NCBI GenBank assembly: GCA_965248055.1
Contig: CBDFIJ010000004.1
Location: forward strand, 896,001-960,000
Source of the DNA: Candidatus Multivoradales bacterium
GTDB lineage: Bacteria; Acidobacteriota; Thermoanaerobaculia; Multivoradales; JAHEKO01
Direction of reading: 5' to 3'
Length of the DNA: 64,000 bases
In this document: positions 5,298 to 55,323 of the stretch, one piece after another
How positions within the stretch are numbered: position 1 is the first letter of the stretch
Layout of the letters: each line of letters opens with the position of its first letter
Made by a program: the position numbers and the translations under genes
The notes under the pieces: model-generated
What the model was told of the DNA's origin: nothing
The model's database searches: none
Seen by the model: only the letters and a program-made list of their open reading frames with translations

Positions 5298-7763
5298 TTA
5301 ACGCCCGGTTGAAATAGGATCAAGGATCGGCGGGTAGTCCTCCGGTGCGAAATCCCGTACCAAGTTGTAGATCGCCAGCAGGATGTCTTCGCGGTTCGGC
5401 TTGGAGAAATAGTCGCCGTCGGTTCCGTAGGCCGGTCGGTGGGAAGAAGCGGAAATCGTCTTGGGCGGCGAATCCAACCACTGAAAAGCCTGCTGACGTT
5501 CCACCACCTGCTGCATCATGTAAGCGCTAGCGCCACCGGGAACATCTTCATCGACAAATACCACCCGATTGGTGCGCTCCACCGACTTGCCGATCACCCG
5601 GTGTAGATCAAAGGGAAGCAATGTGCGTACATCAATGACCTCAGCCTCGACCCCCATGGCAGCGAGATGCTCTGCGGCATCCAGCACGATCGGGCAGCAG
5701 GCACCATAGGTAACCACCGTTACGTCGGACCCCGACCGGAGAATTTCGGGAACCCCCAGGGGCACCGTGGCTTCGCTCAGGTTGTTCGGTATTCTTTCTT
5801 TGTTGCGATAGGCGTTGAGAACCTCTACCACCAGCGCCGGGTCGTCCCCCTGGAGCAAGGTGTTGTACATCCCAGCGGCCTGGGTCATGTTGCGCGGCAC
5901 GCACACCACCATGCCACGCAGGAAGTGGACCAAGCCACCCATTGGCGAACCGGAATGCCAAATTCCCTCCAGGCGATGACCGCGGGTACGAACGATCACC
6001 GGCGCCATTTGTTTGCCGCGGGTGCGCCAGCGCAAGGTCGCTAGGTCGTCGGACATGATCTGCAGCGCGTAGAGCACGTAGTCGAGATACTGAACTTCGG
6101 CAATCGGACGCAGCCCGCGCATCGCCAAGCCGATCGCTTGGCCAAGGATGGTCGCCTCGCGAATCCCGACATCGCTGACCCGGCCTACGCCGTACTTCTC
6201 CTGCAGCCCCGCCATCCCCTGGTTGACATCTCCTAGCTTGCCAACGTCTTCGCCAAAGGCCAAGACTCGGGGGTCACGCTCCAGCACTGCGTCAAAAAAA
6301 CCGCTGAGTACCTCGAAACCCTTCACCAGCGGACTGTCGGCGTCGTAGGTGGGTTCGACCACCGGCACCCGCAGCGGCGAGGACTCCGATTCGCAGTACA
6401 AATGATCTGCATAGCGGGCTAGATTTTCGTCGTGGTGCCGCTCTCGCCAGCTAAGCAATGCTTGCCGAGCCACTAGAACCTCTTCACCTCCTGAGGTCAC
6501 AGAATCGGTTCCGCTACTTGCGGTAAGAGCCAATGCCGACACAGCGGCCTGCGCCAGATCCTTGCGAATCACCACCTGCTTGCGCTCCAAACCGGCGATC
6601 AGATCTTGGATTGGCTGGTTCGGCTGGGGGACGACAAGACCGGCAAGCAGTGGAAGCAACTCGCTCCGCTCTCGATCCAGCTCGCCCTGGAATGACTCCC
6701 AGGCCGCCCGTTGAGCGCTGCGCACCGCGTCGCGGTCTTCTTCCTCCATCCGCTGTAACTCACCATCGGTGACCAGACCCCGATCCAGAATCAAACGACG
6801 CAAATGGGGCAGACAGTCGGCTTGGTGCTCCCACTCCAAGCGCTCCGCTGACTTGTAGCGCTCATGACTACCGGAAGTGGAATGGCCTTGCGGCTGAGTT
6901 AGCTCCACCACATGCACCAACGCCGGGACATGCCCTACTCGCGCATCATGAACCGCTTCTCCATAGACCTCGAGTAGGCGATCGTAGTCCCATCCGGGAA
7001 CGCGAAATATGTTGTAGCCAGATCCTTTTTCGCCCTTGGCAAATCCGGCAATGATTTCGGACAGGTTGGACTTGGTGAGTTGATATTCGTTGGGCACCGA
7101 AATGCCGTAACCATCGTCCCAGATCGAGATCACTGCCGGGACTTCCAAAACCCCTATGGCATTGACCGATTCCCAAAATACACCTTCAGCACAACTCGCG
7201 TTGCCGATACTGCCAAACGCGACTTCGTTGCCAAAACGAGAAAACTTCCCTTCCGGGTCCAGATTGGGAAACTCGCGGTAGACCTTGGATGCTTGTGCCA
7301 GACCCACTAAGCGAGGCATTTGGCTGCCGGTCGGCGATTGGTCTGCTGACGAATTAAATCGATCGGTCTGGCGCACAAACTCACCGTGCTGATCCACTAA
7401 CTCGGTGGCGAAGTGAGCGGTCATTTGGCGCCCGCCGGACCAAGGTTCTCTTACTGGGTCTGAATCTGCGTAAAGTTGCGCGAAAAACTGCTGCAGGGTG
7501 ATCGCCCCGAGCGCCAGCATCCAGGTTTGATCCCGGTAGTATCCGGAGCGAAAGTCTCCTGGCCTCACCTGCTTGGCCAGAGCAATCTGCGCCAGCTCCT
7601 TGCCGTCGCCGAAGATTCCGAACTTGGCTTTGCCGGTCAAGACCTCGCGCCGCCCCAAGAGACTCGCTTCCCGGCTGCGCACAGCAAGTCGGTAGTCTTC
7701 GACCAAACTGTCAAGCCGCGATGGATGAAACGATCTTGTCAATTCTTGGCTGCTCTCATTCAT
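5298..7763 (-). CDS. 2-oxoacid dehydrogenase E1, fused alpha and beta subunits
   Basis: GKAKFGIFGDGKE, GHSTSGSH, FGEDVG, IREATILG and the transketolase C-terminal motif EVIDVRTL. Confidence 0.9.
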   Translation of the reverse strand: MNESSQELTRSFHPSRLDSLVEDYRLAVRSREASLLGRREVLTGKAKFGIFGDGKELAQIALAKQVRPGDFRSGYYRDQTWMLALGAITLQQFFAQLYADSDPVREPWSGGRQMTAHFATELVDQHGEFVRQTDRFNSSADQSPTGSQMPRLVGLAQASKVYREFPNLDPEGKFSRFGNEVAFGSIGNASCAEGVFWESVNAIGVLEVPAVISIWDDGYGISVPNEYQLTKSNLSEIIAGFAKGEKGSGYNIFRVPGWDYDRLLEVYGEAVHDARVGHVPALVHVVELTQPQGHSTSGSHERYKSAERLEWEHQADCLPHLRRLILDRGLVTDGELQRMEEEDRDAVRSAQRAAWESFQGELDRERSELLPLLAGLVVPQPNQPIQDLIAGLERKQVVIRKDLAQAAVSALALTASSGTDSVTSGGEEVLVARQALLSWRERHHDENLARYADHLYCESESSPLRVPVVEPTYDADSPLVKGFEVLSGFFDAVLERDPRVLAFGEDVGKLGDVNQGMAGLQEKYGVGRVSDVGIREATILGQAIGLAMRGLRPIAEVQYLDYVLYALQIMSDDLATLRWRTRGKQMAPVIVRTRGHRLEGIWHSGSPMGGLVHFLRGMVVCVPRNMTQAAGMYNTLLQGDDPALVVEVLNAYRNKERIPNNLSEATVPLGVPEILRSGSDVTVVTYGACCPIVLDAAEHLAAMGVEAEVIDVRTLLPFDLHRVIGKSVERTNRVVFVDEDVPGGASAYMMQQVVERQQAFQWLDSPPKTISASSHRPAYGTDGDYFSKPNREDILLAIYNLVRDFAPEDYPPILDPISTGR

Positions 7764-7766
7764 GCT

Positions 7767-9116
7767 CTAGTTCGGCTCCGCGATCGTGCCGTTCCCAGCC
7801 GCAACCGAGAACGGATTATCGCCCGATGCAGACAGCAACTCTCTCAGCAGCGCGATGTTCATCCGATGGCCAGACCGTTCTGCGGTGACCTTGCCACGCA
7901 CCGGGTAGCCCAGCAGGTAGAGGTCACCAATGATGTCCAGCACTTTGTGGCGGGCAAATTCATTTTCAAATCGGAGCTCGGTATTGAGCACTCCTTCGTC
8001 GCCGACCAGGATGCAGTTGTTCAACCGTCCACCAACCGCCAAACCCAGCTCCGCCATCATCGCCAAGTCACTCATGAAACCAAAAGTCCGGGCCGAGGCA
8101 ATCTGATCGGTGTAGTGATCCGCACCGTCGAGTTCAAATGCACAAGTTTGGTCGCCCACCGGCGGCGGGTAACTCAATTGATACCCGACCGAGAATCCGT
8201 CGTAGGGTTCGATGCGCAGGCGGCGATCTCCATCTTCGATTTGGTAGGCCCGGTCAATTACGACTTCGCGACGACCGACTGGCTGATCCACCACCTCAGC
8301 CTTGCGGATCGCCTGACAAAACTCGGCGGCAGAACCGTCCAACACCGGGATCTCGCCGTTAACCCGAACCATCAGGTTGGTAATGCCAAATGCATGCAAC
8401 GCCGACAGCAGATGCTCGACCGTCTTGATGTGCTCGCCGCCGCCAGAAACCGTGGTCGCGTAATTGGTATTGGCGACGCTGCTGACGTGCGAAGGGATCA
8501 CGCTGCGCCCTGGGATGGTCATGAAATGAATGCCGGTATCGGGCGGCAAAGGGTGCATCGTCATTGCCGTGTCTTGTCCGGAGTGCAGGCCAATCCCCGA
8601 GAGTACGGTTGACCCCGATAAGGTGCGCTGAGGGCGATCACTACGCTCTATCAAGGAAAACACCGGTGGTGAGCGAAATTTTTCAACCGCACCAATCTTC
8701 ATGGCTCGTTGTTCCAAGGAACGGCGCAAACTATCGTCGGCAGAAACCTGGAGGGCGAAGCCAAATCCCTGATTGAGTCGTTCAACAACGCTGTGGAGCG
8801 AGAGGGGCTTCTCCAAGTAGTCTAAGGCACCCATCTTGATTGCCGAGGCAGCGGTCGAGGTCGTCCCGTGCCCTGACATGACGATCACTGCGACCGCGGA
8901 ATCGATCTCCAGAAGCTCTTGCAAGGTCTCCAGGCCGTCTCGATCCGGCAGCCAAACATCCAGGAAGGCAACCCGCGGGCGGTGCTCTCGATACAGGGCA
9001 AGCGCTTCTTCGCTGCTTCCGGCACACAGCGGCTCGCATCCTTCGTCGCGCACAATTTGCGCCAAGGTACTACGAATGCCCGGTTCGTCATCAACGATCA
9101 AAACATGGTTGCTCAT
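7767..9116 (-). CDS. lpxC: Response-regulator receiver domain fused to UDP-3-O-acyl-GlcNAc deacetylase LpxC
   Basis: Receiver motifs IVDDE, FLDVWLP, MSGHG, LEKP. LpxC motifs QRTL, GIGLHSG, TVEHLLSAL, EIPVLDGSA, ARTFGF, HKVLD, SGH. Confidence 0.92.
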   Translation of the reverse strand: MSNHVLIVDDEPGIRSTLAQIVRDEGCEPLCAGSSEEALALYREHRPRVAFLDVWLPDRDGLETLQELLEIDSAVAVIVMSGHGTTSTAASAIKMGALDYLEKPLSLHSVVERLNQGFGFALQVSADDSLRRSLEQRAMKIGAVEKFRSPPVFSLIERSDRPQRTLSGSTVLSGIGLHSGQDTAMTMHPLPPDTGIHFMTIPGRSVIPSHVSSVANTNYATTVSGGGEHIKTVEHLLSALHAFGITNLMVRVNGEIPVLDGSAAEFCQAIRKAEVVDQPVGRREVVIDRAYQIEDGDRRLRIEPYDGFSVGYQLSYPPPVGDQTCAFELDGADHYTDQIASARTFGFMSDLAMMAELGLAVGGRLNNCILVGDEGVLNTELRFENEFARHKVLDIIGDLYLLGYPVRGKVTAERSGHRMNIALLRELLSASGDNPFSVAAGNGTIAEPN

Positions 9117-9169: not shown

Positions 9170-10969
9170 TTGCACCTCCACCACCTCCGTGGCATTGTAG
9201 CCCTAGTGGCCTATCCCAGTCCCAATATCCTCGTCCCTAAACCGCGGGACATCCGTGTTGGCAATGCGTTCCCAACCCCGCAGTCGGTGGCCCTGCGAGG
9301 CCCCTGGTCCGAAGACCTGGCCCATTCCTTCGATGCCGACGCCAACACTGGGTGGTCGATCGAAATCCAGATCGACGCAGAGATACCGAGTCAGCACTAT
9401 CGATTGAATCTCACTAGCTCGGGTGCGGTCCTCCAGACCTCGGACCGCTCTGGGGCATGGAATGGGCTGCAAACCACTCGCCAATGGTTGCAGGCACACC
9501 AAGCGCTCCCTCAAATATCAGCGCTGTCAGTGGTCGATGGCCCGGATTTCGTGCGCCGAGGAATCACACTCGATATCAGCCGTTGCCGAGTGCCGCAAAT
9601 GAGCCAGCTCTACGCCCTGGTCGATAGCCTGGCGGGATGGAAGATCAATCAACTCCAGCTCTATACCGAACACACCTTCGCCTACGCTGGCCACAAGCAG
9701 GCGTGGAACGGCTGCTCTCCGATAACCGCGGAGGAAATTCATGCCTTAAGTACTTATTGTGCCCAGCGCGAGGTTCGACTGGTGCCCAATCAAAACAGCC
9801 TGGGTCATTTTCATCGCTGGTTGAAACACGCCGCGTACCGTCCACTTGCCGAATGCCCACAGGGAATCGAACACCCTTTTAGCTCGGCAGTCGAGCCTTA
9901 CGGACTGTGTGCCACCGATCCGCGGGTGTTCGATCTGCTCAGCGACCTCTACGGTCAACTGCTGCCCCAGATCGACGGCGACCGAGTACACGTCGGCTGC
10001 GATGAGACCATCGACCTAGGACGGTGTCGCTCGAAGTCCGAGGCTGCCGCACGGGGAGTTCCGGCCCTGTTCACTGACTACGTGCTGCGCCTGCGCCAAC
10101 TGGCGGCCCGCTGGGATCGCAAGCTGGAGATCTGGGCGGATACCCCGTTGGCGAATCCAGAGATGGTCGACCAACTCCCGGACGACGTACGCCTTCAGGT
10201 CTGGGGTTACGAGGCCGAGCACCCCTTTGACCAACAATTGAGTCTATTGCACGGTAGAGACATCGACATCTGTCCGGGTACCAGCAGTTGGTGCAGCTTG
10301 GCGGGGCGGTCCAACAATGCTCTGGCCAACCTCAGTGCGGCTGCTCAAGCCGGAGTCGGCCATGCGGCGGGTTATGTAATCACCGATTGGGGTGATTACG
10401 GACATCCGCAGCCGCCTTCGGTGAGCACACTTGGTTATCTCGCAGGTTCGGACCTGGCTTGGAACGCGGTTGGCCGAGCCAGTGACCAGTACCGGGTTCT
10501 GCTCCAGCAGCATCTGGGGGATGGCATTGGTGCAGCCCTGTTTGACCTGGGCACGGCTCACGAAGCGTTGGCCACCCCTTGTTTCAACGGCACTCCCCTG
10601 TTTCATCTGTTGTTTCATTGGCAAGATTCGCTGTCCCATGGTCGCTATCGGGGCCTGGGAGCGAGCGATCTCAAAACCGCCAAGAGTGCGATCGACCGGG
10701 TTGCTGATCCAGGGAGTCACTCGCTCAAGAACGACATCCTGTGGCTTCGCAAAGGCCTGCAACTGTCGTGTGACTTAGGCCTCGCCCGCCTCGAACACCA
10801 CGACCGGATCGACCAACTACCACCCAGGGTTCGCGCCGATCTCGCCGATCGGCTGGCTACTTGGAGGTCGGACTACGCCGAACTGTGGCTGTCGACGTCG
10901 AGAACCGGTGGATTTGACGAATCGGTGGCACCGCTTGAGTCGCTGGGGGCAGCGCTTTCCACCGGCTGA
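9170..10969 (+). CDS. Glycoside hydrolase family 20 (beta-N-acetylhexosaminidase-like); start uncertain
   Basis: RGITLDISR, KINQLQLYTEH, PNQNSLGH, catalytic HVGCDE, ITDWGD. Confidence 0.85.
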   Translation: MHLHHLRGIVALVAYPSPNILVPKPRDIRVGNAFPTPQSVALRGPWSEDLAHSFDADANTGWSIEIQIDAEIPSQHYRLNLTSSGAVLQTSDRSGAWNGLQTTRQWLQAHQALPQISALSVVDGPDFVRRGITLDISRCRVPQMSQLYALVDSLAGWKINQLQLYTEHTFAYAGHKQAWNGCSPITAEEIHALSTYCAQREVRLVPNQNSLGHFHRWLKHAAYRPLAECPQGIEHPFSSAVEPYGLCATDPRVFDLLSDLYGQLLPQIDGDRVHVGCDETIDLGRCRSKSEAAARGVPALFTDYVLRLRQLAARWDRKLEIWADTPLANPEMVDQLPDDVRLQVWGYEAEHPFDQQLSLLHGRDIDICPGTSSWCSLAGRSNNALANLSAAAQAGVGHAAGYVITDWGDYGHPQPPSVSTLGYLAGSDLAWNAVGRASDQYRVLLQQHLGDGIGAALFDLGTAHEALATPCFNGTPLFHLLFHWQDSLSHGRYRGLGASDLKTAKSAIDRVADPGSHSLKNDILWLRKGLQLSCDLGLARLEHHDRIDQLPPRVRADLADRLATWRSDYAELWLSTSRTGGFDESVAPLESLGAALSTG

Positions 10970-11669: not shown

Positions 11670-14600
11670 ATGCCCTCCCTCACTCCCCCACAACCCCCTG
11701 CATCCTCGACCGTGATCCAAGCATCGGGAACCCTGGCTTGCCAGGACCTGTTGTTCGACCGTCTGGATTCCTTGCTCGAGAATTACCAGACCCAGCCGGA
11801 CTTTCGCTCGCAGATCTGGCTGGTGGTACCAACTCGCGTCCTGCTTCGCCACCTACAACACCGCACAGTAGAAAGGTTGGGCGCCACACTCGGCCTGCGC
11901 TTCTGGACTCTCGGCGCTCTGGTGCGATCCCTGATTGCCAACGATCGGCACCACTCCGAAGCCAACAAGGATCGTTCGTCGAACGATGAGGACCCGACCG
12001 GCGACGATCTGCTGTTCGAGATCCTCGCCACGCGCCACCTAGCGGAACTGCGCGACACCAGCTTTGAACGCGCTCGAGGTCCAGGCGGCGCGCTGCGAGA
12101 TCTGGTCGATGCGGGGCTGGAGATTGAGCACCTCGGTAGCGTCATCGAACAGCTTGGCGACGCTGAGGTGTCCGGCGAGGACATCCAACGAGCCGAACAA
12201 CTGTTAATCGCTTGTGGAAAAACACTACAAGCTGCCGAGCAAGCGGGCATCTTCCCCGCTCGGCTGCGCTATGCAAGAGCCACCCAAACCTTGGACCAAG
12301 CAAACCAATACCCGAACTCCAGCGGCAACCCAAGCTCACTGTTGGTCTATGGCTTCGCCGACCTCACCGGCACCGGAGCTGATTTTCTACAAACCCTGGT
12401 CAACCGGTTCCATGGAACGGTGATCCTGAATCGACCTCCCGAGCCAGACGCCGCGACCCCGATTCCCGCGATCGATCGATATTTGCAGCGTTGGCAATCT
12501 CGACTCGCTCCACCGATCCTCGATTCCAGATCCGCTGCGTCACCAACAGTCACAGTGTTTCGCGCCGCCAAGCCCGCCGAAGAAATGCGCGGAATTGGCA
12601 CTCGCATTCGAACACTGCTGGAGCAAGGGATTACGCCGTCGTCGATTGGCGTGGTGCTTCGCCAACCGCTGGTCTATGCGCTGCCAGCGCTCAACGAACT
12701 GAGCCGACTGGAGATTCCCTGTTCAGCGCCGGGGCTGCCTGGGTTCCTGCTGCCCAGCGGGCGGCGTATTCGCGCTCTGTGCGACCTCCTCGATCACGGC
12801 GAGGCGGCACCCCTGGACCGCTGGCTCGACGCCCGTTGGGAGGCTGGGTCTTGGGAGGCCAGTGCTTTGGAGACCTACCCATGCGATGACCCAGACAGCG
12901 GAATTCCAACCTTCGAGATTCGCCGCCGGTTGGCACTCACCGGACTGCGGACTCTGGGGCATCTAGCGCGCCTAGAAGTGGACAACGAAAGCGACTCCTC
13001 CACCGAGGGCGGCAGGCAAGCGAAGTGGTGCGACGAAGCGAGCCAGATTCTCTCACTGCTGCACAGCTGGCGTTCCGGAGCGGGCGTTGACCATGCCCAT
13101 CAACTGGCCCAGCTGATCAAGCTTCTGCGCTGGCCCGAAGAGGAAATCTCGGCGATCGATATCGACTCACGGCTTCAGCCTCTGGAGTTGGAGCTTTCGT
13201 TCGATGAGTTTCGCTACTGGCTGAAACGTTCTACCGAAGACGACGGACGAACCGACTCAGATCCATGGACGCTCGGCGGGGTCCGCATCCTGAGAATTCA
13301 AGACGCTCGGGACGTGACCTTTTCCCACCTGTTCATTCCGGGGATGAGCCGGGGGCTCTTTCCACGCGCCATTCAAGGCGACGCCGAGTTGCGTGAGGAA
13401 TTACGCGAGTTGCTGGCCGGCGGATTGGTACCCGATCTGCCCTTGGCAAGTCGCTTCCACGACGAGGAAAGATATTTGTTTGCGCAACTATTGAGCGCTG
13501 CCCCCACAGTGACTCTCAGCCATTCGGAACGCAATCTCGACGAACGTTTAATGCCCCGGTCTTCTCTGCTGAGTCTGCTTCCGGCGGAAACCACGACTCA
13601 GATACCTCGTGGGGTCCCCGGTCCACAGGAGCCAGAGTTCGCACAATCTTGGAGCACTCTCAGCCCCTTTCAACGCCGGATTCAAGCAGGCCTTTGGAGT
13701 CGTAACCTGCAAGGGGAGGAGTTGTCCGCGGCGTCCATCGCGGTACTTGACGAGTACAACCGTGACGGACCCAGTCCCTACTTGGGTTGGATCGGTCCTT
13801 CCGAAGACGCTGGTGATCGACGCAACCGAACCGTCTACGTGACTCGTCTGGAAGGCTACGCTCGGTGCCCTTGGCAAACCTACCTGCGGAACTTCCTCAA
13901 GCTACGCCAACGCCAAGATCCCGATCTGGTCGCCCCAGATCTGCCACCGTTGGCCGTCGGTGCGGTGGTTCACGATCTACTTAAGGACATCGCCATAGCC
14001 GACGGCGTCCCCAGTGGCCCTTGGCGACGAGTGGCCGAGAACCAGCCGCAGGCCATGACTTGGCCCGACCAGGATGTATTGCAAGAAATGGTAGTCCAGG
14101 CGGCTCACAATTACACCAATCGTCAGGGAGTACGATTGCCCGGCTATGCCGAGACCCTGGCTCACGCGGTCGCCGCAACGCTTCAGCGGGCTCAAGCGGC
14201 AGACCTTCAGACCAAGACCCAAGTTGTGGCAGTGGAAAGCGAGGGAGTAGCCCAGTTCGATCGGCAAACGGTCGCTTTCCGCGTCGACCGACTGGAGATG
14301 CGCGACGGTGCCTTGCTAGCCACCGATTTTAAGACCGGAAGCCGCGCCCAGACCGGACGTCCCGCCACTCAGATTGGTAAGGCCCAATGGCTACAACTCC
14401 CCACCTACCTCTTGGGCGGTGCGGAGCAAGCACAGTTGTTGTTCATTGGCGACCGTGATCACCCCCAAGGCTTGGAAGTTGGTCTGGGTCTCGACGACAC
14501 CAAGGCGGTGGAAACATTTCGCGAACTGGCGGCGACTTTGTCCCAAGGATGGAGACAAGGGCGTTTCTTTCCTCGAGTCCTTACCCACTCCGGAAGTCGA

Positions 14601-14732
14601 CCGCGAACCTGCACCTGGTGCGAATTTGCTGAAGCCTGCTCCGAACGGGATCCCTTCGCCCGCAACCGAGTCAAGGAGGCGGTCGAGGCCGACGGCCCGG
14701 CAAATGGTGTCTGGAAGGTGGGGGTCGGATGA
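11670..14732 (+). CDS. addB: AddB-like helicase/nuclease subunit (PD-(D/E)XK nuclease with Fe-S staple)
   Basis: Degenerate helicase body, nuclease RVDRLE...DFKTG, and four Cys (YARCP; CTWCEFAEAC). ATGA-coupled to addA. Confidence 0.8.
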   Translation: MPSLTPPQPPASSTVIQASGTLACQDLLFDRLDSLLENYQTQPDFRSQIWLVVPTRVLLRHLQHRTVERLGATLGLRFWTLGALVRSLIANDRHHSEANKDRSSNDEDPTGDDLLFEILATRHLAELRDTSFERARGPGGALRDLVDAGLEIEHLGSVIEQLGDAEVSGEDIQRAEQLLIACGKTLQAAEQAGIFPARLRYARATQTLDQANQYPNSSGNPSSLLVYGFADLTGTGADFLQTLVNRFHGTVILNRPPEPDAATPIPAIDRYLQRWQSRLAPPILDSRSAASPTVTVFRAAKPAEEMRGIGTRIRTLLEQGITPSSIGVVLRQPLVYALPALNELSRLEIPCSAPGLPGFLLPSGRRIRALCDLLDHGEAAPLDRWLDARWEAGSWEASALETYPCDDPDSGIPTFEIRRRLALTGLRTLGHLARLEVDNESDSSTEGGRQAKWCDEASQILSLLHSWRSGAGVDHAHQLAQLIKLLRWPEEEISAIDIDSRLQPLELELSFDEFRYWLKRSTEDDGRTDSDPWTLGGVRILRIQDARDVTFSHLFIPGMSRGLFPRAIQGDAELREELRELLAGGLVPDLPLASRFHDEERYLFAQLLSAAPTVTLSHSERNLDERLMPRSSLLSLLPAETTTQIPRGVPGPQEPEFAQSWSTLSPFQRRIQAGLWSRNLQGEELSAASIAVLDEYNRDGPSPYLGWIGPSEDAGDRRNRTVYVTRLEGYARCPWQTYLRNFLKLRQRQDPDLVAPDLPPLAVGAVVHDLLKDIAIADGVPSGPWRRVAENQPQAMTWPDQDVLQEMVVQAAHNYTNRQGVRLPGYAETLAHAVAATLQRAQAADLQTKTQVVAVESEGVAQFDRQTVAFRVDRLEMRDGALLATDFKTGSRAQTGRPATQIGKAQWLQLPTYLLGGAEQAQLLFIGDRDHPQGLEVGLGLDDTKAVETFRELAATLSQGWRQGRFFPRVLTHSGSRPRTCTWCEFAEACSERDPFARNRVKEAVEADGPANGVWKVGVG

Positions 14733-17700
14733 GCAAACAACTCGATCTATTTCCCAACGGCTCCGGTCCTCCGGAGGCAGACACTGCAACGACTGCGACT
14801 TCAAAGGGCGATGACTCAGCGGCCTCCACGTCGGAGAACACGGCTTCGGAGAACACGGCTTCGGTGAACACTGCCTCAGAGAACACTGCTTCGGTGAGCA
14901 CTGCCTCGGGGAACACTGCCTCAGAGAACACTGCCTCGACAACCACCGACTCCACCGCGCGGCAACGCGCCGCCTGTACCTTTGATCGCCCGGTCACCGT
15001 CGAAGCCGGGGCTGGTACCGGAAAAACCACTCTGCTGATCCACCGTCTACTGGTGTGGACTCTCGACGCTGGGTGGAAACACGCTGCCCGCCGAAAGAGA
15101 AACCAAGGCGCACCGTCGCAAGAGATTGCCTCCGAGCGCACCGCAGGGCAGATCCTGGATCGGATCGTCGCCATCACCTTCACCGAAGCCGCGGCAACCG
15201 AATTGGCGGACCGCTTTATCACCGCAATCACTAACGCAGCCCACTTGGAATTTCCACCCGGCTTTGACCGTGACTGGATCGAAACGGATGACGCCACCGT
15301 GCAACAACGCACCCGATGGCTGATGCCGCAGTTGGACCGTGCTCACATCTCAACCATCCACGCATGGTGTTTCGAGGTGTTGCGCCGCCACCCCTACGTC
15401 GCCGAGGTTCAGTCCGACCTGGAAATCCTGGCCGACGCCCAACAGATCGAGGCTGTGGCCCGACAAGTAGTGGAAAAGCACTACGCCCTGGCCTATCAGC
15501 AGGGCTATGACGCCGACTTGGTCCGCCTGGGGGAAGAAAAGATCGGCCCCAGGGATCTGATCGAAATTGCCCGCACCTGGATCACTGCCGACTGGAACTT
15601 GGATCACCAACTCCCCGAAGACGACGGACTGTCCACTGCGCTCGAAGTGATCTGCAGCAGCGCCCACGCCTTGGCTGACGCCGCTACACCCAGCCTGGGC
15701 ACCTTGGGTGGCAAGAATCTGGCTCCTCTAGTGGTCGAAGCGGCCCAGGCAACATCCCAACTCGATGGCAGCGACCCCGCTGAGGCATTGCAGCAACTCA
15801 ACAGCCTGTGGTCAGACAAGCTGCGGAAGCGGGCGGTCTCGTGGGCCGAACGAGACTTCAATGCCACCGAGGCGAGGGCGATCCGTTCTACCTCGACAGG
15901 CCAAGAGAACATCGGCCAAGCCGCGACCGGACTGGCACTGTACCTTCCGATTCTGCGCTTCTTGGACCCAATACGCTGGGGACGACGGAGACGAGTTCTA
16001 GTCGCCATCCTGAACGACCTCCAAGTGGCCCTCAACGAGGCGTCAGCGATCACCTTCGGTGGCCTACTGCGCCGTACCGCGGAGCTGCTCAACAACCACC
16101 CGGAAGTTGCTAGGAGCGAGCGCAACCGGATCGATCTGTTATTGGTCGATGAATTCCAAGATACCGATTCTCAGCAGGCGTCCTTGGTGACTTCGTTGTC
16201 GTTACATCAGGAATCCGGCCCCTGCCTGATCGTGGTCGGTGATCCCAAGCAATCGATCTATGGCTGGCGTAGCGCGGACTTGGAAACCTATGAACAAGTG
16301 CAAACGGCGGTACGCAAACGCAAGGGACTGGAATTGGTGCTGACCCAGAATTTCCGCAGTACCGGCGAGATTCTGGCTGCGACCGACCACATTGTTGGCT
16401 CGCAGATGGTCCTGAATCCGGGAATTCAGCCGCTCTACCATCCACTAGAACTAGGAGCCTCGCACGCCACGGAACCCGGCCAAGCGGTGGAGCTTTGGCG
16501 CACCCCACCAGCACTCAAGGCCGCAGAGGCCACCCATCTGGAGGCTGAGTGGTTAGCCCATGACTTACAGCAGAGACACAGCGCAGGAGGTCTCCAGTGG
16601 CACCAAGTGGGCATCTTGATGCGCGGCAAGACGCATGTACGAACCCTGCTCCGGGCTCTGCGCCGCCGGGGCGTTCCCTACGTGCTCAGCTCCGACGCTG
16701 GTTTTCACCAACGCAGCGAAGTGATCGACGGCGCCGCCTGGGTGCGCTTGGTGGCGGATCCCACCGACGAAGTCGCGCTACTCAAAGTCTGCCGCTCTCC
16801 GGTGGTCGGCATCCCCGACGGCGCCCTTCTGCCCTTGTGGACCGGAGACTTCGTGCAATTGATGGCGGGTTTTGACAAACCGAACAGCGAAACCGAAATC
16901 CTACTGCGAAATCAACTTACGGAAGCAGCGGCCAGCCTAGGTGAGATTCCCGGCCTGGAGCGAATCGAGGGATGGGTCGAACTGGCGAGCTCTAGCCTGG
17001 GCCACATCGGCGCTCTGCGCCAGACCCTGCGGCAACACTCGTTCGTCGAGTTCATCAACCGTTTGCGCGAAGTGACCGCGATTGAAACGATCGAAGCGCG
17101 ACGTCCCGAAGGAGAAGCGCGAACCGCAAACCTGGAAAAACTCTTTGACCAACTAGTGCAGCAAGTGGAAGAGTCGGGTGGCGACACCCACGCGGTGTTG
17201 CGAGTGTTGCGACGCGGCATCTTCTTTGAGCTGCCAGCCGAAGAAGCGCTATCCCTAACTCCGGCCGACGGCGCGGTGCAAGTGGCGACCGTCCATGCTG
17301 CCAAGGGCCTAGAGTTCGATCACGTCTACCTGATTCAAACCGGCTCCGGTGGAGGTCACGATGACACCACCTTGCAAGTGGAACCGACACGACCGGGCGC
17401 CACCTTGATTCGCTCGGTCGCCCATCCGCAATGGGCCCACGGCAGGTTGCGCCGTAGACAAGTGACCGAGGCCGAGGCCTTGCGGCTACTCTACGTCGCT
17501 CTGACCCGAGCTCGGCGACGCTTGGTCATTAGCCTGCCGGGGAAACCTAGAGCCAACACTTTGGCCAAGCTGATTGATTCGACAATTGCCAGCAGCCCCA
17601 ATGTGTGGCTTGAACGCGAACTCACCGACTCTCCGGATGAGCACATCGACCCCAACCTCGACGCCAATCGTCACCAACCGCTGCCCAATCCGCCTTGGAC

Positions 17701-18334
17701 CTCCCTGGCTTCTCCGCTAGCACTGCATCAGACGCCGACCAGTCTTCCAGATCACTGGGCCACAGATCAGGGAGTCCCAGATCATCGGACTCCAGATCAG
17801 CGGGCTTCTAGCAACTCCGCAGCGTCTGCCAGCGACCCCTTGGGCGAAGCACACCACCGTCGCCGCGGAGAGGTCATTCATCGCCTGTTGGCGGAGATTG
17901 ACCTCAGCGACACTGAACCACAGCCACCCTCCTCAGTCGCCAGTCAGAAAGATGCAGTCGACTTCTGGCAACGATTTCGCACTTCTAGCAGCGGACAGAG
18001 ACTGCTCAAACTGGGATCTGTATCACCTGAAGGAGGTCGCCTACGCGGGCGCGAAGTCGATGTCTTAGGTGACGCCGCCTTGCTGGGCAACACGAGCAAC
18101 GCTGTCTACGCTACCGGCCGCCTCGACCTGCTGTACCAAGATTCCGCAGGCACCTGGGTCATTGCCGATTTCAAGACCGGCGCCCCGAGCGACCTCAGCG
18201 CTGCGGTCGAGCAATATCGCCCCCAGCTCAGCTTCTATGGTCGGGCTCTACAACAGGCTCTCGCCCTGGATCAGATGCCGCGGCTAGAACTTTGGTTTGT
18301 CGACCTGGATCGAATTGAAGAAATTGCTTCCTAG
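14729..18334 (+). CDS. addA: AddA-like UvrD helicase/nuclease subunit
   Basis: AGAGTGKT, VDEFQD, VGDPKQSIY, QNFRS, TVHAAKGLEF, YVALTRAR; C-terminal GRLDLL...DFKTG...QL. Confidence 0.9.
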   Translation: MSKQLDLFPNGSGPPEADTATTATSKGDDSAASTSENTASENTASVNTASENTASVSTASGNTASENTASTTTDSTARQRAACTFDRPVTVEAGAGTGKTTLLIHRLLVWTLDAGWKHAARRKRNQGAPSQEIASERTAGQILDRIVAITFTEAAATELADRFITAITNAAHLEFPPGFDRDWIETDDATVQQRTRWLMPQLDRAHISTIHAWCFEVLRRHPYVAEVQSDLEILADAQQIEAVARQVVEKHYALAYQQGYDADLVRLGEEKIGPRDLIEIARTWITADWNLDHQLPEDDGLSTALEVICSSAHALADAATPSLGTLGGKNLAPLVVEAAQATSQLDGSDPAEALQQLNSLWSDKLRKRAVSWAERDFNATEARAIRSTSTGQENIGQAATGLALYLPILRFLDPIRWGRRRRVLVAILNDLQVALNEASAITFGGLLRRTAELLNNHPEVARSERNRIDLLLVDEFQDTDSQQASLVTSLSLHQESGPCLIVVGDPKQSIYGWRSADLETYEQVQTAVRKRKGLELVLTQNFRSTGEILAATDHIVGSQMVLNPGIQPLYHPLELGASHATEPGQAVELWRTPPALKAAEATHLEAEWLAHDLQQRHSAGGLQWHQVGILMRGKTHVRTLLRALRRRGVPYVLSSDAGFHQRSEVIDGAAWVRLVADPTDEVALLKVCRSPVVGIPDGALLPLWTGDFVQLMAGFDKPNSETEILLRNQLTEAAASLGEIPGLERIEGWVELASSSLGHIGALRQTLRQHSFVEFINRLREVTAIETIEARRPEGEARTANLEKLFDQLVQQVEESGGDTHAVLRVLRRGIFFELPAEEALSLTPADGAVQVATVHAAKGLEFDHVYLIQTGSGGGHDDTTLQVEPTRPGATLIRSVAHPQWAHGRLRRRQVTEAEALRLLYVALTRARRRLVISLPGKPRANTLAKLIDSTIASSPNVWLERELTDSPDEHIDPNLDANRHQPLPNPPWTSLASPLALHQTPTSLPDHWATDQGVPDHRTPDQRASSNSAASASDPLGEAHHRRRGEVIHRLLAEIDLSDTEPQPPSSVASQKDAVDFWQRFRTSSSGQRLLKLGSVSPEGGRLRGREVDVLGDAALLGNTSNAVYATGRLDLLYQDSAGTWVIADFKTGAPSDLSAAVEQYRPQLSFYGRALQQALALDQMPRLELWFVDLDRIEEIAS
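14834..14938 (+). repeat. Seven-copy 15-bp in-frame tandem repeat (ENTAS-like) in the addA N-terminus
   Basis: gagaacacggcttcg x2, gtgaacactgcctca, gagaacactgcttcg, gtgagcactgcctcg, gggaacactgcctca, gagaacactgcctcg. Confidence 0.95.
17747..17806 (+). repeat. Four degenerate 15-bp in-frame repeats (CAGATCA core) in the addA helicase-nuclease linker
   Basis: ccagatcactgggcc/acagatcagggagtc/ccagatcatcggact/ccagatcagcgggct. Confidence 0.75.
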
Positions 18335-51221: not shown

Positions 51222-52134
51222 AGCGAATCCTTGGGTCGAGCAGCGCGTAGAGCAAATCGGTGATCAGGTTGACCGCCAGGTAAGTAATCGCCATCAGCAG
51301 GACCCCACCTTGCACCACCGGGTAATCGCGCAGGCGAATCGCCTGGATCAGCAAGCGGCCCAGGCCAGGCCACGAAAAGATGGTTTCGGTGATAATCGCT
51401 CCGGTGAGTAGGGCGCCGGTTTGCAGACCGATCACCGTAACCACCGGAATTAGGGCGTTGGCAAAGGCGTGACGCCAAACCGCCACCGAGTGGGCGACCC
51501 CTTTGGCGCGCGCGGTGATCATGTAGGGCTTGGGAAGTTCCTGCGCCACCGCAGTGCGCACCATCCGGGCCAACAGGCCGGCCAACGCGGTTCCCAGGGT
51601 GATCGAAGGCAGCACCAAATGAGCCAGTCCGCCGCGACCGGAGACCGGGAACCAACCGGCGCGAATCGAAAACAGCAAGATCAAGATCGGGCCGAGCCAA
51701 AAATTGGGGGTCGAGACTCCGAGCAGAGAGATCACGCGGGCCAAGTGATCGACCCAGCGACCCCGATAGATCGCCGCGACAATCCCCAGAGGCACCGCCA
51801 GAAACACCGCCACCAACAGACTCCCAAGAGCCAGTTCCAGGGTCGCCGGATAATGCTCCCAGAGCAGACTGGAGACCGAACGTTGGTAGTGAAACGACTG
51901 CCCAAGATCGCCGCGAACCAGCCCCTTGAGAAAAGACAGGTACTGCACGCCCAAGGGTTGATCCAAGCCCAAGTCGGCGCGCATCGCCTCGACATCCGCC
52001 GCCCGGGCACTCTCCCCCAGCATCATCGCCACCGGATCTCCCGGAATCAAATGGATCAACGAGAACACCGCCGTGGCCACCAACAGTGCCAGCGGAACGA
52101 CCTGCAGAAGTCGACGCAGAGCGTAGCGAGCCAT
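51211..52134 (-). CDS. Peptide/nickel ABC transporter permease (DppB-like)
   Basis: IPGDP, GDLG.S, TARAKG, ETIFSWPGLG, RDYPVVQG. ATG 52134 overlaps the upstream stop. Confidence 0.9.
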   Translation of the reverse strand: MARYALRRLLQVVPLALLVATAVFSLIHLIPGDPVAMMLGESARAADVEAMRADLGLDQPLGVQYLSFLKGLVRGDLGQSFHYQRSVSSLLWEHYPATLELALGSLLVAVFLAVPLGIVAAIYRGRWVDHLARVISLLGVSTPNFWLGPILILLFSIRAGWFPVSGRGGLAHLVLPSITLGTALAGLLARMVRTAVAQELPKPYMITARAKGVAHSVAVWRHAFANALIPVVTVIGLQTGALLTGAIITETIFSWPGLGRLLIQAIRLRDYPVVQGGVLLMAITYLAVNLITDLLYALLDPRIRYGE

Positions 52135-55100
52135 CAGACCCTGATCCCTAGCTTGCGAATCCAATAGGAGAGACCCTGGCGGGTCAACCCCACCGATCTG
52201 GCAGCTTCCGCCTGATTGCCGCCTGTGCGCTTGAGGGCGTCTTCGATCAACTTCCTGCGAAACCGATCGACTTCCACTTGAAAGTCGGTGCGCGGTGGCG
52301 CATCGGGCTGGGAAAACTCCAGATCGTCAGCGGCGATGCGGCCGTCGTCACTTAAAGCCGTGGCCAAGCGCAACACATTCTCCAGTTCTCGGACATTGCC
52401 CGGCCAAGGATGGCGTAGCAACTTGGTCACCGCCTCGCTCTCGAGATGAAACGCCCGATCTTCACGACTCCATTGAGCTAAGAAATGGCGCGCGATCAAG
52501 ATCACATCTTGCCCCCGCTCTCGAAGCGGTGGCAACTCAACCCGGCCGACGTGCAAACGGTAGAAGAGGTCCTGACGAAAGGTTGCGTCGTCAAGCATGC
52601 GGGTCAAGTCACGGTGAGTCGCCGCCACCACCCGGGTATCCACTTTTCGAACTCGGCTCTCCCCCAAACGCATGACTTCCGATTCTTGCAGCAAGCGGAG
52701 AAATCGTCCCTGTGCGTCGAACGGAAGATCCCCAACCTCGTCCAAAAACACTGTTCCACGATTGGCACTCTCGAAGTGTCCAGCGCGGTCCTTCTCGGCG
52801 CCGGTAAACGCTCCTTTGACGTGACCAAACAAATCCGACAGCAGCAGAGACTCCGAGACTGCGGCGCAATTGACCGGCACGAACGGACCTTGGGCGCGTT
52901 GGCTGCGTTGATGCACCCACTTAGCCACCAGTTCCTTTCCGGTACCGGTTTCGCCCAAGATCAAAATTGGCAAATCAGAGCGAGCCAGCCGATCCACTCG
53001 ATCGAGCGCCGCCAACAATGCCGGACTCTCGCCAACAATGCCACCGTGATCTCCGGCGACCCGAGAGACCGTAGCCTGCCGCAGCGAGGTTTCGCGAACG
53101 ACCAAGCCCATCAAAGCTCTGAGCGGCGCGTCAACGTGATCGGCGTCCAAGATCAACCGTCCTGCACCCGCGTCCAAGGTCTGACGCTCTCGGCCTCCCT
53201 GTCCTTCGACCAAGACCCCGGCGTCTGGACCATCCCATTCCAAACGCACATCCCCGTATCCAGTCCCGGAAAAAAGCGCCGCGATATCTCCGCCGGTCTC
53301 GGGATCGAGATACTCCGCGACCGCAGACCAAGCATCGCCGGTATTCCCTTCGACAAATCGAGCCCACAGTTCCAAACCCAATTGGCGAAAACTACGGATC
53401 GCCGACAAGCGCTGGCGTCGCGGCACGTATCCGGGGCTCATCAGTTCCAGATCGCGAATCAACCGAGCAGCTCGAAATCCTCCCAGGCTCCCGATCCGCG
53501 CCCAGGACTCAGTACTAAGCGGAACCCCGGCCAGCGCGCCACTCCACAATTCAAAAGTCTCCCCATCGATCGCTTGTTGGGCTCGATGCCGCTCTCCAGC
53601 CAGCGCCCAAACGGCAGGGATCTCCTCCAGATCGAAGGTCGTGAGTCCCTCTTCTCCGCCGTCACGCAAGCGCTGGGCAGCGTCTTCCGGCCTCCCCATC
53701 AGCCCCAGAGCGCGCGCCGCCCAGGCTTGCAGCACTGGGCGCCGCCATTCGAACGTCTCTTGAACCAAGAACTCGTCAACCACTCGGAGCGCTCGATCAG
53801 AACGACCCCGCGTCAGGTGATAGCGCGCCAGCAATTCGACATCGTGGACCACTGCCCGAAGATTCCCCGCCAACTGATCGGCCTTGGCCGCGGCGTCCAC
53901 CAGTTCGCGGACTCCCTCCACCTTGCCCTGTTTGAGTAGAACCTCCACCAAGTTATAGAGATGTACTGAGGTGGTCAGCGGACCTTCGAAGCCCATTGCC
54001 AACCGGTAGGCGTTCCTGGCGGCCCGCTCCGCCCGCACAGTATCTCCACGGAGCTCAGCTGCCGAGACCAGGTTGGCCCACATGAGGCTGGCTCGCACCG
54101 GGGTCATTTGCCGCCGGAATTGAACCAGGGCACAACCGAACGCCTGTTCGGCCTGCCCCCCTTGGCCAGCGCTCAAAGCTCTCAACCCCTCCGCGTTGTA
54201 CCACTTCCAACCGTGCTGTGGATGGTCTCGCAAAGCAGCACCGGCGGAGACTAGATGTGCTGCACTCTCAGTATCGCCGAAGTCGTAGGCCGAACTTGCC
54301 AAAGAGGCCGTCGCCAGCATGTTCCAAGGCGAACGATCCATTTTTGCCAGCTTGGAGCGCCAACGGTCGACACCCTTCAAATCTCCCAGGTTGAACAGCA
54401 TACGCAGTGCAACATCTCCGACTTTGGTCTGTTGCTGGTCGTTGAGAGTTCGCTTTTCCAACTTGGCCAGTTGCTTTCGCGCCGCTCCCAGACGCTGCAA
54501 TCGGACCAAACAGAGCAACCGAACTACCTCAGCCTCGATCCTCGACACTCGCTGGACAACTTCCACAGCCTGCTCAAACTTCCCGGTCGCCAAAAGACAC
54601 TGGGCAAACAGAACCCGCTGTTCGTCTCCGCGGAATCCACCTACCCGAAACGCGGACACAGCGGCGGCCCACCGGCTATTGCGCGCAAGCTCGGTTGGGT
54701 CCCCGGCACCAGCCCCCGACCAGTCGCGTCGGAGCTCTCCCGCCGCGATCAATGATCGAGGGGTCTCTCCGCCATCCAAATGTCGTTCGACCTGAAGTTG
54801 AAAGGCCATCGGTCCGACGACCCTGGTTTCCCCGCTACCTGCCTCTTCCGCGAATAGCGCGTGGCGGGCGTAGTCGAAATCTGACTTCCACAGGAATGGC
54901 GAGAAGTTGAAGATCTGGCGCAAAATCTCAGTGATCGTCAGCGGCGCCAGTGACTGTTCCCAGGCAACCGCCAAACGCCGAGCACTCCGACGCGCTTCTC
55001 CTCGTCCAGAAATTTCGGACTCGCAGCGAAATAGGGCCAACAGAAAATCACGCAATCGACGATGGGCTGGGAGCGAGTCTCGGCCTGGCTGAGCGACGAG

Positions 55101-55304
55101 TCCAGCCAATGCCCCGGTGGAGACAACGTGTCCTTCTTCCAATCCACCGACCAATTTCCACCCAGCCGCATCCAAGTGCGCCAGCAATCCAGCGGCCTGC
55201 AACACTACGGCGAGCTTGGCGCGATCGGTCAACTCCGCTTCAACGACTCGATCCCCCACCAATTCCCGGAGGCAAGGGTGTTCAAGTCTTGATATCGGGC
55301 TCAC
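52134..55304 (-). CDS. Large sigma-54 enhancer-binding protein (TPR-like N-terminus, AAA+, Fis HTH)
   Basis: GETGTGKE, GAFTGA, FLDEVGD, FRQDLFYRL, WPGNVREL, GNQAEAAR. Probable GTG start at 55304. Confidence 0.88.
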   Translation of the reverse strand: MSPISRLEHPCLRELVGDRVVEAELTDRAKLAVVLQAAGLLAHLDAAGWKLVGGLEEGHVVSTGALAGLVAQPGRDSLPAHRRLRDFLLALFRCESEISGRGEARRSARRLAVAWEQSLAPLTITEILRQIFNFSPFLWKSDFDYARHALFAEEAGSGETRVVGPMAFQLQVERHLDGGETPRSLIAAGELRRDWSGAGAGDPTELARNSRWAAAVSAFRVGGFRGDEQRVLFAQCLLATGKFEQAVEVVQRVSRIEAEVVRLLCLVRLQRLGAARKQLAKLEKRTLNDQQQTKVGDVALRMLFNLGDLKGVDRWRSKLAKMDRSPWNMLATASLASSAYDFGDTESAAHLVSAGAALRDHPQHGWKWYNAEGLRALSAGQGGQAEQAFGCALVQFRRQMTPVRASLMWANLVSAAELRGDTVRAERAARNAYRLAMGFEGPLTTSVHLYNLVEVLLKQGKVEGVRELVDAAAKADQLAGNLRAVVHDVELLARYHLTRGRSDRALRVVDEFLVQETFEWRRPVLQAWAARALGLMGRPEDAAQRLRDGGEEGLTTFDLEEIPAVWALAGERHRAQQAIDGETFELWSGALAGVPLSTESWARIGSLGGFRAARLIRDLELMSPGYVPRRQRLSAIRSFRQLGLELWARFVEGNTGDAWSAVAEYLDPETGGDIAALFSGTGYGDVRLEWDGPDAGVLVEGQGGRERQTLDAGAGRLILDADHVDAPLRALMGLVVRETSLRQATVSRVAGDHGGIVGESPALLAALDRVDRLARSDLPILILGETGTGKELVAKWVHQRSQRAQGPFVPVNCAAVSESLLLSDLFGHVKGAFTGAEKDRAGHFESANRGTVFLDEVGDLPFDAQGRFLRLLQESEVMRLGESRVRKVDTRVVAATHRDLTRMLDDATFRQDLFYRLHVGRVELPPLRERGQDVILIARHFLAQWSREDRAFHLESEAVTKLLRHPWPGNVRELENVLRLATALSDDGRIAADDLEFSQPDAPPRTDFQVEVDRFRRKLIEDALKRTGGNQAEAARSVGLTRQGLSYWIRKLGIRV

Positions 55305-55323
55305 CGTTCTCCACCGAAAAGGA

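Follow-up and report, generated by a model that had tools for sequence, protein, structure and literature searches.

LpxC as the Possible Output Domain of a Response Regulator: A Receiver Fusion in a Multivoradales Bacterium

Lipopolysaccharide synthesis is controlled at LpxC, an enzyme that has long been pursued as a target for antibiotics. Here, a stretch of 64,000 nucleotides from a Candidatus Multivoradales bacterium (Acidobacteriota, class Thermoanaerobaculia; contig CBDFIJ010000004.1, positions 896,001 to 960,000), called "the window" throughout, is found to carry a gene in which a receiver domain is joined in a single open reading frame (ORF) to a complete LpxC. The product of this gene, REC-LpxC, is best explained, on the evidence of sequence comparison, as a response regulator with LpxC itself as its output domain. 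Its best candidate partner is a sensor kinase encoded elsewhere in the genome, called hk6. Under the reading preferred here, hk6 would phosphorylate Asp53 of the receiver and so control LpxC directly, replacing the transcriptional wiring that relatives use. This is held to be slightly better than an even bet, with a probability of roughly 0.55.

What would such a protein mean? The controls of LpxC listed in the available text of a 2025 review (PMC12444477) are proteolysis through FtsH/LapB and transcription. A receiver fused to LpxC would, if the reading is true, add a third to these, in which a sensor kinase controls the enzyme directly, after translation. It would also make a natural and testable case of one signalling module wired to the same target either by transcription or by fusion. 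For this kinase family, whose signal is little understood, deacetylase activity would then serve as a simple read-out in vitro.

The fused gene and its two halves

An earlier reading of the window, made from its letters without database searches (the sequence-only reading), had described one continuous frame at 7767-9116. The frame is there, encoding 449 amino acids; the strand, which that reading did not give, is minus. The gene and its parts are as follows.

7767..9116, minus strand: REC-LpxC gene, a single ORF with an ATG start, 449 codons and a stop
8739..9107, minus strand: receiver domain, residues 4-126 (Pfam; five strands and five helices by DSSP of the AlphaFold2 model)
8958-8960, minus strand: codon for Asp53, the phospho-acceptor (read from the sequence)
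8652..8738, minus strand: linker, residues 127-155 (a short helix at 128-137, then coil)
7827..8651, minus strand: LpxC catalytic domain, residues 156-430 (Pfam, NCBIfam, alignment and Foldseek; E234/H235, H390/K391/D394/D398, H417)
7770..7826, minus strand: C-terminal tail, residues 431-449 (unconserved in the alignment; model confidence below 50 for 437-449)

Residues 5-114 match Response_reg (Pfam PF00072) with 90.2 bits against a cut-off of 30.2. Residues 163-428 match LpxC (PF03331) with 290.5 bits against a cut-off of 27, covering positions 1-267 of the 268 in the profile, and the NCBIfam lpxC model (TIGR00325) is matched with 243.4 bits, where the cut-off is 187.25. The top NCBIfam match for the receiver is NtrX (NF051870, an equivalog model), with 97.5 bits over model positions 2-112. 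This is below the cut-off of 600 for a full-length NtrX, and Pfam finds neither an AAA+ nor an HTH_8 domain. REC-LpxC is not, of course, an NtrX; only its receiver belongs to the NtrX subfamily.

The sequence-only reading also held that the receiver keeps all of its phosphorylation residues and that the LpxC is complete, with zinc ligands and catalytic histidine. The translation bears this out. The receiver has D9-D10-E11, F51-L52-D53-V54-W55, S81 and K103-P104; the LpxC domain has E234-H235-L-L, H390-K391-V-L-D394 and H417. Here, E234, H235, H390, D394 and H417 are taken to be the counterparts of E. coli E78, H79, H238, D242 and H265, the zinc ligands and the catalytic Glu and His.

These residues do not merely happen to survive in one protein. 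In an alignment of 68 sequences that extends down to 29% identity, D10, D53, S81, K103 and P104 of the receiver are invariant (68 of 68), with D9 conserved in at least 90%. Invariant as well are E234, H235, H390, K391, D394, D398 and H417 of the LpxC domain. The linker of about 30 residues is variable in sequence and fairly constant in length within the acidobacterial clade. Both halves of REC-LpxC are intact and under purifying selection.

The predicted structure

An AlphaFold2 model built on the 68-sequence alignment has a mean predicted local distance difference test (pLDDT) of 89.9 and a predicted template modelling score (pTM) of 0.86. In the modelled receiver, DSSP assigns strands at 4-8, 28-32, 49-53, 76-81 and 99-102, and helices at 12-24, 35-45, 61-71, 86-94 and 107-126. 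Confidence falls to a block pLDDT of 70-72 in the linker (residues 131-150), is mostly above 90 in the LpxC part, which begins at 156, and is low from residue 437. The pTM may be read as indicating a defined arrangement of the receiver with respect to LpxC.

The LpxC part is matched by Foldseek to the solved LpxC structures from P. aeruginosa, A. aeolicus and E. coli, with target-normalised template modelling (TM) scores of 0.83-0.95, root mean square deviations of 1.5-2.7 Å, and identities of 34-39%. No solved chain found by Foldseek spans both the receiver and LpxC; the best query-normalised TM score is 0.58. A predicted docking of the receiver (residues 1-140) onto LpxC (156-436), run without controls, scored 0.00 against a mark of 0.32, a value that is not taken as evidence on binding in either direction.

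Where might the two domains touch? Ten positions in the LpxC domain (171, 183, 184, 241, 251, 267, 316, 370, 379 and 415) are specific to the fused proteins, in the sense that one residue occupies the site in at least 85% of 36 fused rows and in at most 15% of 53 stand-alone rows. At 251, for example, the fused proteins have Lys or Arg where stand-alone LpxC has Glu; at 267, they have Cys where stand-alone LpxC has Val. From these comparisons, the ten are candidates for a surface that contacts the receiver.

The model bears on a different view of what the receiver does. Here, the receiver would set the amount of LpxC, not its rate. Phosphorylation would expose or hide a degradation or adaptor signal, in the manner of RssB or CpdR, as a counterpart to proteolysis by FtsH/LapB. 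The degron of E. coli LpxC lies at the C-terminus. Most of the fused proteins stop about 10 residues past the last LpxC helix, which can be read to mean that they have no degron of the E. coli type and would need another handle for proteolysis. Further, the main control of LpxC in E. coli and Pseudomonas acts on its stability, according to the available text of two papers (PMC3333781, PMC12444477). However, no feature of the sequence hints at a protease or adaptor, and none of the genes linked to the fusion in the window encodes a protease. The two-domain model, with its pTM of 0.86, fits intramolecular control at least as well. Control of stability is judged unlikely.

The only LpxC of this organism

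The genome to which the window belongs (G000) is 3.41 Mb in four contigs and 97.7% complete, with REC-LpxC on the 3.35-Mb contig (C4). The sequence-only reading had proposed looking in it for a stand-alone lpxC. There is none; the single PF03331 match in the whole genome is REC-LpxC. The lpxA, lpxB and lpxK genes are present, with 291.7, 276.7 and 174 bits respectively, each above its cut-off. With these genes present and no other LpxC, the organism would therefore make lipid A using REC-LpxC as its LpxC. This gives indirect support to the view that REC-LpxC serves as the lipid A deacetylase of the organism, with a predicted activity on UDP-3-O-acyl-GlcNAc.

A family of fusions

All of the best 120 of 7585 significant matches to REC-LpxC carry both Pfam domains, and the few named members among these 120 come from Thermoanaerobaculia or Acidobacteriota. 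The survey of receiver-LpxC architectures that the sequence-only reading recommended finds the arrangement widespread and conserved, in at least six phyla.

That reading had also named the most mundane explanation, a misassembly absent from relatives. An artefact of assembly or gene calling is now virtually out of the question. The ORF runs without interruption on a 3.35-Mb contig, and the 120 two-domain homologues come from many assemblies and sources. Seventeen of 201 evenly sampled Acidobacteriota genomes have the fusion at full length, and 31 short and 5 long fused loci are found in named records.

A search among 1.84 billion cluster representatives shows that the fusions come in several forms. 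Long forms (650-736 amino acids) have a receiver, a sigma-54-type AAA+ domain with its lid, and sometimes HTH_8, followed by LpxC; one long relative (P0125) retains the AAA+ domain, the lid and HTH_8. Others have a degraded AAA+ domain, or are receiver-HTH_8-LpxC proteins of about 500 amino acids, or are short, as in the window. A domain rule applied to 270 proteins sorts them into 141 short, 15 long, 2 intermediate, 8 N-extended without a receiver, 82 stand-alone, and 22 fragments.

How are these forms related? In a tree of 97 LpxC domains, 40 of 41 stand-alone rows and two N-extended, receiver-less rows form one starred clade, with all of the fused domains on the other side. There, long forms are mixed with short ones; a long form has an intermediate one as its sister at 100 (starred), and one clade, again at 100 (starred), unites a short form with two long ones. 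For these cases, the simplest reading would be that an NtrX-like regulator repeatedly lost its middle part. For linker residues 127-157, an hhalign comparison of short and long forms finds no confident counterpart, and the linker is accordingly not read here as a remnant of the AAA+ or HTH parts.

Among named records, the fusion is found within the Acidobacteriota in Thermoanaerobaculia, Holophagae and genomes labelled Terriglobia, and also in Aminicenantes. Elsewhere, it is in Syntrophobacteraceae, Desulfocapsaceae, Desulfomonile, Binatia, Thermodesulfovibrionia, Nitrospinaceae, and unclassified metagenomic "Deltaproteobacteria." Desulfopila sp. IMCC35006 (locus L048) is a carrier that can be cultivated. 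Among the 201 Acidobacteriota genomes, those other than the 17 show a stand-alone LpxC. In the class of the window, the fusion is present in 6 of 17 sampled genomes; the other 11, including one unpublished genome (G024), have the stand-alone form. The fusion is also absent from a family within the order of the window (G183, G193). It is therefore patchy, not class-wide.

A second tree, of 91 LpxC domains from named or handle-labelled sources, is divided by one branch at 100 (starred) into 38 rows and 53 stand-alone rows. The 38 comprise 31 short forms, 5 long forms, and 2 scored as stand-alone by the ORF rule; one of these two (L053) matched residues 1-427, and is therefore a fusion that a frame shift has split. 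Every acidobacterial stand-alone LpxC is among the 53, including those from the order and class of the window. In a subset of 36 rows, a tree constrained to put all 16 acidobacterial rows in a single clade is worse by 97.7 log-likelihood units (p = 4.5e-7 in the approximately unbiased test, p-AU).

From these trees, the fusion seems to have been invented once, to have passed between phyla, and to have taken the place of the native lpxC in this lineage. The trees came from quick searches, of course, the group was named after the tree had been seen, and a shift of constraint after fusion could mimic shared ancestry.

What relatives do with a stand-alone lpxC

The stand-alone relatives offer a view of the wiring that the fusion may have replaced. 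Gene distances were parsed for 100 stand-alone Acidobacteriota genomes in which both lpxC and the best match to hk6 could be placed. In 32, lpxC lies directly upstream of the hk6 match (within 3 kb, on the same strand). In the others, the two genes are on different contigs (60 genomes), far apart (7) or 5 kb apart (1). The 100 include three unpublished genomes (G024 and G150, in the 32; G049, in the 60), and leaving these out gives 30 of 97. The same adjacency is found in 0 of 17 fused genomes.

Ten of the 32 stand-alone loci with this adjacency were inspected. All have lpxC, a DUF4390 gene (detected in 7), the kinase, and a regulator with a receiver and an AAA+ domain. In ten of the 17 fused genomes, likewise inspected, the 2.4-4 kb of sequence at hand beside the kinase, on the relevant side, contains neither lpxC nor the regulator; DUF4390 was detected with the kinase in 6. 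In one of the ten (L107), the upstream flank is too short to judge. Thus, the regulator is adjacent to the kinase in 10 of 10 inspected stand-alone genomes versus 0 of 10 inspected fused genomes. The cluster is dispersed in the fused genomes.

The cluster regulators all carry the GAFTGA motif (10 of 10), and are therefore sigma-54 activators. A -24/-12 sigma-54 element lies just before the start of lpxC in 9 of the 10 cluster loci (L110-L118 among them), where it is usually the sole such site, or one of two, in a locus of 8-10 kb. In none of 12 acidobacterial fused loci is a -24/-12 element found within 450 bp upstream. Transcription of lpxC is accordingly predicted, from motif and promoter together, to depend on sigma-54 in the genomes that have the cluster.

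A candidate partner kinase

The sequence-only reading saw no histidine kinase next to the gene, and suggested that a partner be predicted. The survey of kinases made here covers the HisKA family. None of the nine HisKA matches in the genome falls inside the window (G000:C4:896001-960000); one of the nine can be named as a candidate by orthology.

G000:C4:1161171-1163330, outside the window: hk6 kinase, 719 amino acids, transmembrane-HAMP-PAS-HisKA-HATPase

In hk6, a long N-terminal region is followed by HAMP (319-363), PAS (386-490), HisKA (501-567) and HATPase (611-718). Directly upstream is a gene for a DUF4390 protein (58.3 bits, cut-off 27), and the order of genes across C4:1160229-1165807 (L019) is DUF4390, hk6, yqeY, selB. 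No regulator gene adjoins hk6, and no NCBIfam model for NtrY is among the matches listed for it. In the available text of a paper on these systems (PMC13001219), DUF4390 is PlrP, a third component of NtrYX-family systems that was shown genetically, and homologues of PlrP are always beside a homologue of ntrY. By its architecture and its DUF4390/PlrP neighbour, hk6 would be a kinase of the NtrY/PlrS type.

What connects hk6 with the fusion is the arrangement in other phyla. In 13 loci there, a kinase is encoded directly upstream of the fusion, within about 130 nucleotides in 12 and at 445 nucleotides in the other (L032). For the kinase in each of the 13, hk6 is the best match among the nine HisKA kinases of the window genome. 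A tblastn search with the DUF4390 protein of that genome found no match before these fusion-adjacent kinases; their DUF4390 is either too divergent for the query or absent. A kinase like hk6 is kept, further, in all 17 acidobacterial fused genomes. From orthology and the similarity of receivers described below, hk6 is the best candidate for the partner of REC-LpxC.

A second regulator with a similar receiver

The dispersal of the cluster might suggest that the partner regulator was lost from the window genome. This was considered and rejected, since an orthologue is present.

C4:169877-171319, outside the window: orthologue of the sigma-54 regulator, 480 amino acids, with a GSFTGA motif

This protein is 48-52% identical to all ten cluster regulators, scoring 395-444 bits where the next-best protein of the same genome scores 328-391. 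In five further fused genomes, too, the orthologue of the regulator is not linked to the kinase.

The receiver of REC-LpxC resembles those of these regulators. It has 44-56 of 113 aligned positions in common with the cluster regulators encoded beside the hk6 orthologues. With the sigma-54 regulator of its own genome it shares 50 of 113; for the nine remaining receivers of that genome, the figure is no higher than 37. A receiver hidden Markov model derived from the fusions scores the fusion at 155, the sigma-54 regulator at 125, and the next best at 107. This likeness makes it likely that one kinase has two partners; that is, hk6 probably also serves the unlinked sigma-54 regulator.

One kinase with two regulators is, of course, the layout of known phosphate sinks, and this raises the prospect that information flows the other way. 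The LpxC domain would report the load of its substrate or product, and the fused receiver would compete with the sigma-54 regulator for phosphoryl groups, tuning the targets of the latter. The long forms lend this view something, as a single chain there contains LpxC together with what may be a DNA-binding output. The short forms, however, have no output besides LpxC, yet keep all of the residues of the phosphorylation site. Nor does a sink need to be fused to an essential enzyme, and the invariant catalytic residues imply that the protein is an enzyme first. A sink is considered very unlikely.

The setting of the regulator orthologue is worth recording (C4:169877-173000, L002). Its gene is directly behind one for an HtrA/DegP-like protease (Trypsin_2 and PDZ domains) and before an acyl-CoA dehydrogenase gene. 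A weak GG-N10-GC element (8 of 11 positions) lies upstream of the protease gene. A regulator beside this protease hints at an envelope-stress target.

The proposed mechanism and the case against it

The sequence-only reading had inferred that a phosphorelay may gate LPS flux directly; the computational checks it proposed all turned out in favour of this inference, which is strengthened by them and plausible. The preferred reading can now be set out as a sequence of steps. The orphan kinase hk6, of the NtrY/PlrS type, would phosphorylate Asp53 of REC-LpxC. The phosphorylated receiver would then alter the activity of LpxC through alpha5, the last helix of the receiver, and the linker, as happens in enzymatic regulators of the CheB type. 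Phosphorylation is predicted to raise the activity. This sign is the weakest step; it is predicted because the sigma-54 activator and sigma-54 promoter of the relatives can only switch lpxC on.

Several observations weigh against this account. The predicted sign conflicts with the NtrYX of alphaproteobacteria, which lowers the expression of lpxC. The gene for hk6 is 256 kb from that for REC-LpxC, and kinase and fusion are unlinked in 17 of 17 acidobacterial fused genomes. Two other HisKA kinases of the window genome are also orphans (C4:1088946-1090325 and C4:690912-695042), and the pairing with hk6 is drawn solely from orthology and receiver similarity. The ten cluster loci were taken from the 32 genomes where adjacency was already visible; they represent six families and include several close kin, so they do not count as ten independent observations. 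Last, in a tree made from receivers only (62 rows, 116 columns), the node that unites fused receivers with cluster regulators has a support of 86, unstarred. That tree is too poorly resolved to place the origin of the acidobacterial fused receivers, which could have come with the LpxC or from a local sigma-54 regulator.

The missing linkage invites the view that hk6 does not drive the receiver at all. Another kinase might do so, or acetyl phosphate, or the receiver might be a constitutive module for structure or dimerisation, inherited with a gene acquired horizontally. The acidobacterial fused LpxC does group with the fusions of other phyla, and not with native acidobacterial LpxC, so the gene may have arrived without its kinase. 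The invariance of D10, D53, S81 and K103 over 68 sequences speaks against a purely structural role, however. The retention of an hk6-like kinase in each of the 17 fused genomes, with its native partner gone from its side in the 10 inspected, speaks against a different driver. A receiver independent of hk6 is accordingly rated quite unlikely, and direct control of LpxC by hk6 is the reading kept here.

A broader history can be built on this, and it is offered tentatively, at somewhat less than even odds. In some lineages, lpxC would have a sigma-54 promoter on which a sigma-54 activator acts; in others, the receiver would be fused to LpxC, with phosphorylation switching the enzyme. The fusion would have arisen once, from a full NtrX-like regulator and LpxC, and would have lost its AAA+ and DNA-binding parts repeatedly. 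It would then have spread horizontally over at least six phyla, displacing the native lpxC, including in the lineage of the window.

Genes and sites around the fusion

Downstream of REC-LpxC, the neighbour is the one that the sequence-only reading had named.

5298..7763, minus strand: fused alpha/beta 2-oxoacid dehydrogenase E1, 821 amino acids (ORF list, Pfam)

The E1 gene begins 3 bp past the stop codon of REC-LpxC, on the same strand, and the two are probably co-transcribed. No terminator-like site was found between them in the scan, the gap being only 3 bp. No E2 or E3 gene adjoins E1 in the window. In other acidobacterial fused loci, E1 is downstream of the fusion in 2 of 12 (directly in L020; on the same strand at about 5 kb in L022), so that the linkage is kept only in the closest named relatives.

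Before the fusion, neither a genome-wide scan for sigma-54 sites nor a scan for sigma-70 promoters and terminators finds anything convincing. There is a poor sigma-54-like element at window positions 9468-9483 (minus strand), with 9 of 11 positions matching and a non-canonical -24 box, 367 bp before the start codon of REC-LpxC and within a divergent GH20 gene. The window has four sites of this kind in all. This one is not conserved when 12 related fused loci are compared, and is probably due to chance.

Three other features deserve mention. At 52134-55553 (minus strand), the window encodes a protein of 1139 amino acids with a sigma-54 AAA+ domain at 839-1138 behind a long N-terminal region that has no domain assignment. 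At 11670-18334 (plus strand) is an AddAB-like pair, a PD-(D/E)XK nuclease of 1020 amino acids and then a UvrD-type helicase-nuclease of 1201, whose genes overlap by 4 bp. Outside the window, the three small contigs of the assembly (C1, C2 and C3; 14.8, 16.7 and 28.4 kb) have a G+C content of 39-43%, versus 57% on the 3.35-Mb contig. One of them, C2, encodes both a receiver protein and a HisKA kinase. Plasmids, foreign DNA and contamination from binning are all possible origins of the three.

Comparison with known systems

The sequence-only reading knew of no characterisation of this regulatory logic. This stands for the fusion itself. Full-text literature searches, with subscription-only papers outside their scope, found no published description of a receiver-LpxC fusion, and the words "receiver," "fusion" and "fused" are absent from the 2025 review of lipid A regulation (PMC12444477), as far as its text is available. 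It does not stand for the connection between this kinase family and lpxC, which was already known at the level of transcription. In the accessible part of that review, NtrYX affects the expression of lpxC in Rhodobacter and Caulobacter. Deleting ntrYX in Rhodobacter raises lpxC mRNA 8.8-fold, and the accessible text of the report (PMC7240162) gives no NtrX binding site found at lpxC; the effect therefore looks indirect. In Desulfovibrio vulgaris, lpxC is the single mapped target of the regulator DVU2934, according to the portion of the paper at hand (PMC3333781). That portion also notes orthologues in Acidobacterium capsulatum and states that, in Syntrophobacter fumaroxidans, the gene immediately before the orthologous operon is lpxC.

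Thus, what the comparisons suggest is a rewiring of a known link by fusion, not a new link. New here are the separation on the tree of fused LpxC domains from stand-alone ones, the stand-alone cluster with its predicted sigma-54 promoter, the dispersal of that cluster in fused genomes, and the candidate kinase and regulator. Conversely, the fusion lends independent support to the link between NtrYX and lpxC in alphaproteobacteria and Desulfovibrio.

Among the systems that resemble REC-LpxC, the stand-alone LpxC enzymes of E. coli, P. aeruginosa and A. aeolicus have the same family, the same fold, and the equated zinc and catalytic residues. They lack the roughly 155 N-terminal residues of receiver and linker. 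The bifunctional LpxC/FabZ (NF009667) is also a natural fusion of LpxC, but one that joins two enzymes of lipid synthesis, with no signalling domain. Only its LpxC part matches REC-LpxC, with 204.2 bits, far below the cut-off of 465; REC-LpxC is not a member.

On the signalling side, NtrY/NtrX and PlrP-PlrS-PlrR share with the proposed system a receiver of the NtrX type and a candidate kinase with the NtrY architecture and a DUF4390/PlrP gene. REC-LpxC differs in having no AAA+ or DNA-binding part, an enzyme as output, and a kinase that is not adjacent. The NtrX of alphaproteobacteria is not known to carry a GAFTGA motif. The ten acidobacterial partner regulators keep theirs, unlike the long forms of the fusion (0 of 6 checked).

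The DVU2931/DVU2934 pair is alike in being a two-component system dedicated to lpxC, and the S. fumaroxidans layout matches the acidobacterial cluster of lpxC, kinase and regulator. In D. vulgaris, a sigma-54 activator exerts the control at transcription, whereas in REC-LpxC the receiver and the enzyme are one protein. The likeness is drawn from the description in the available text of the paper.

In overall design, REC-LpxC resembles CheB, PleD/WspR and RpfG, which have the same layout of N-terminal receiver, linker and C-terminal catalytic domain, and whose activity is under the control of phosphorylation. These are enzymes of signalling and chemotaxis. The output of REC-LpxC, by contrast, is a biosynthetic metallo-amidase that acts at a committed and essential step.

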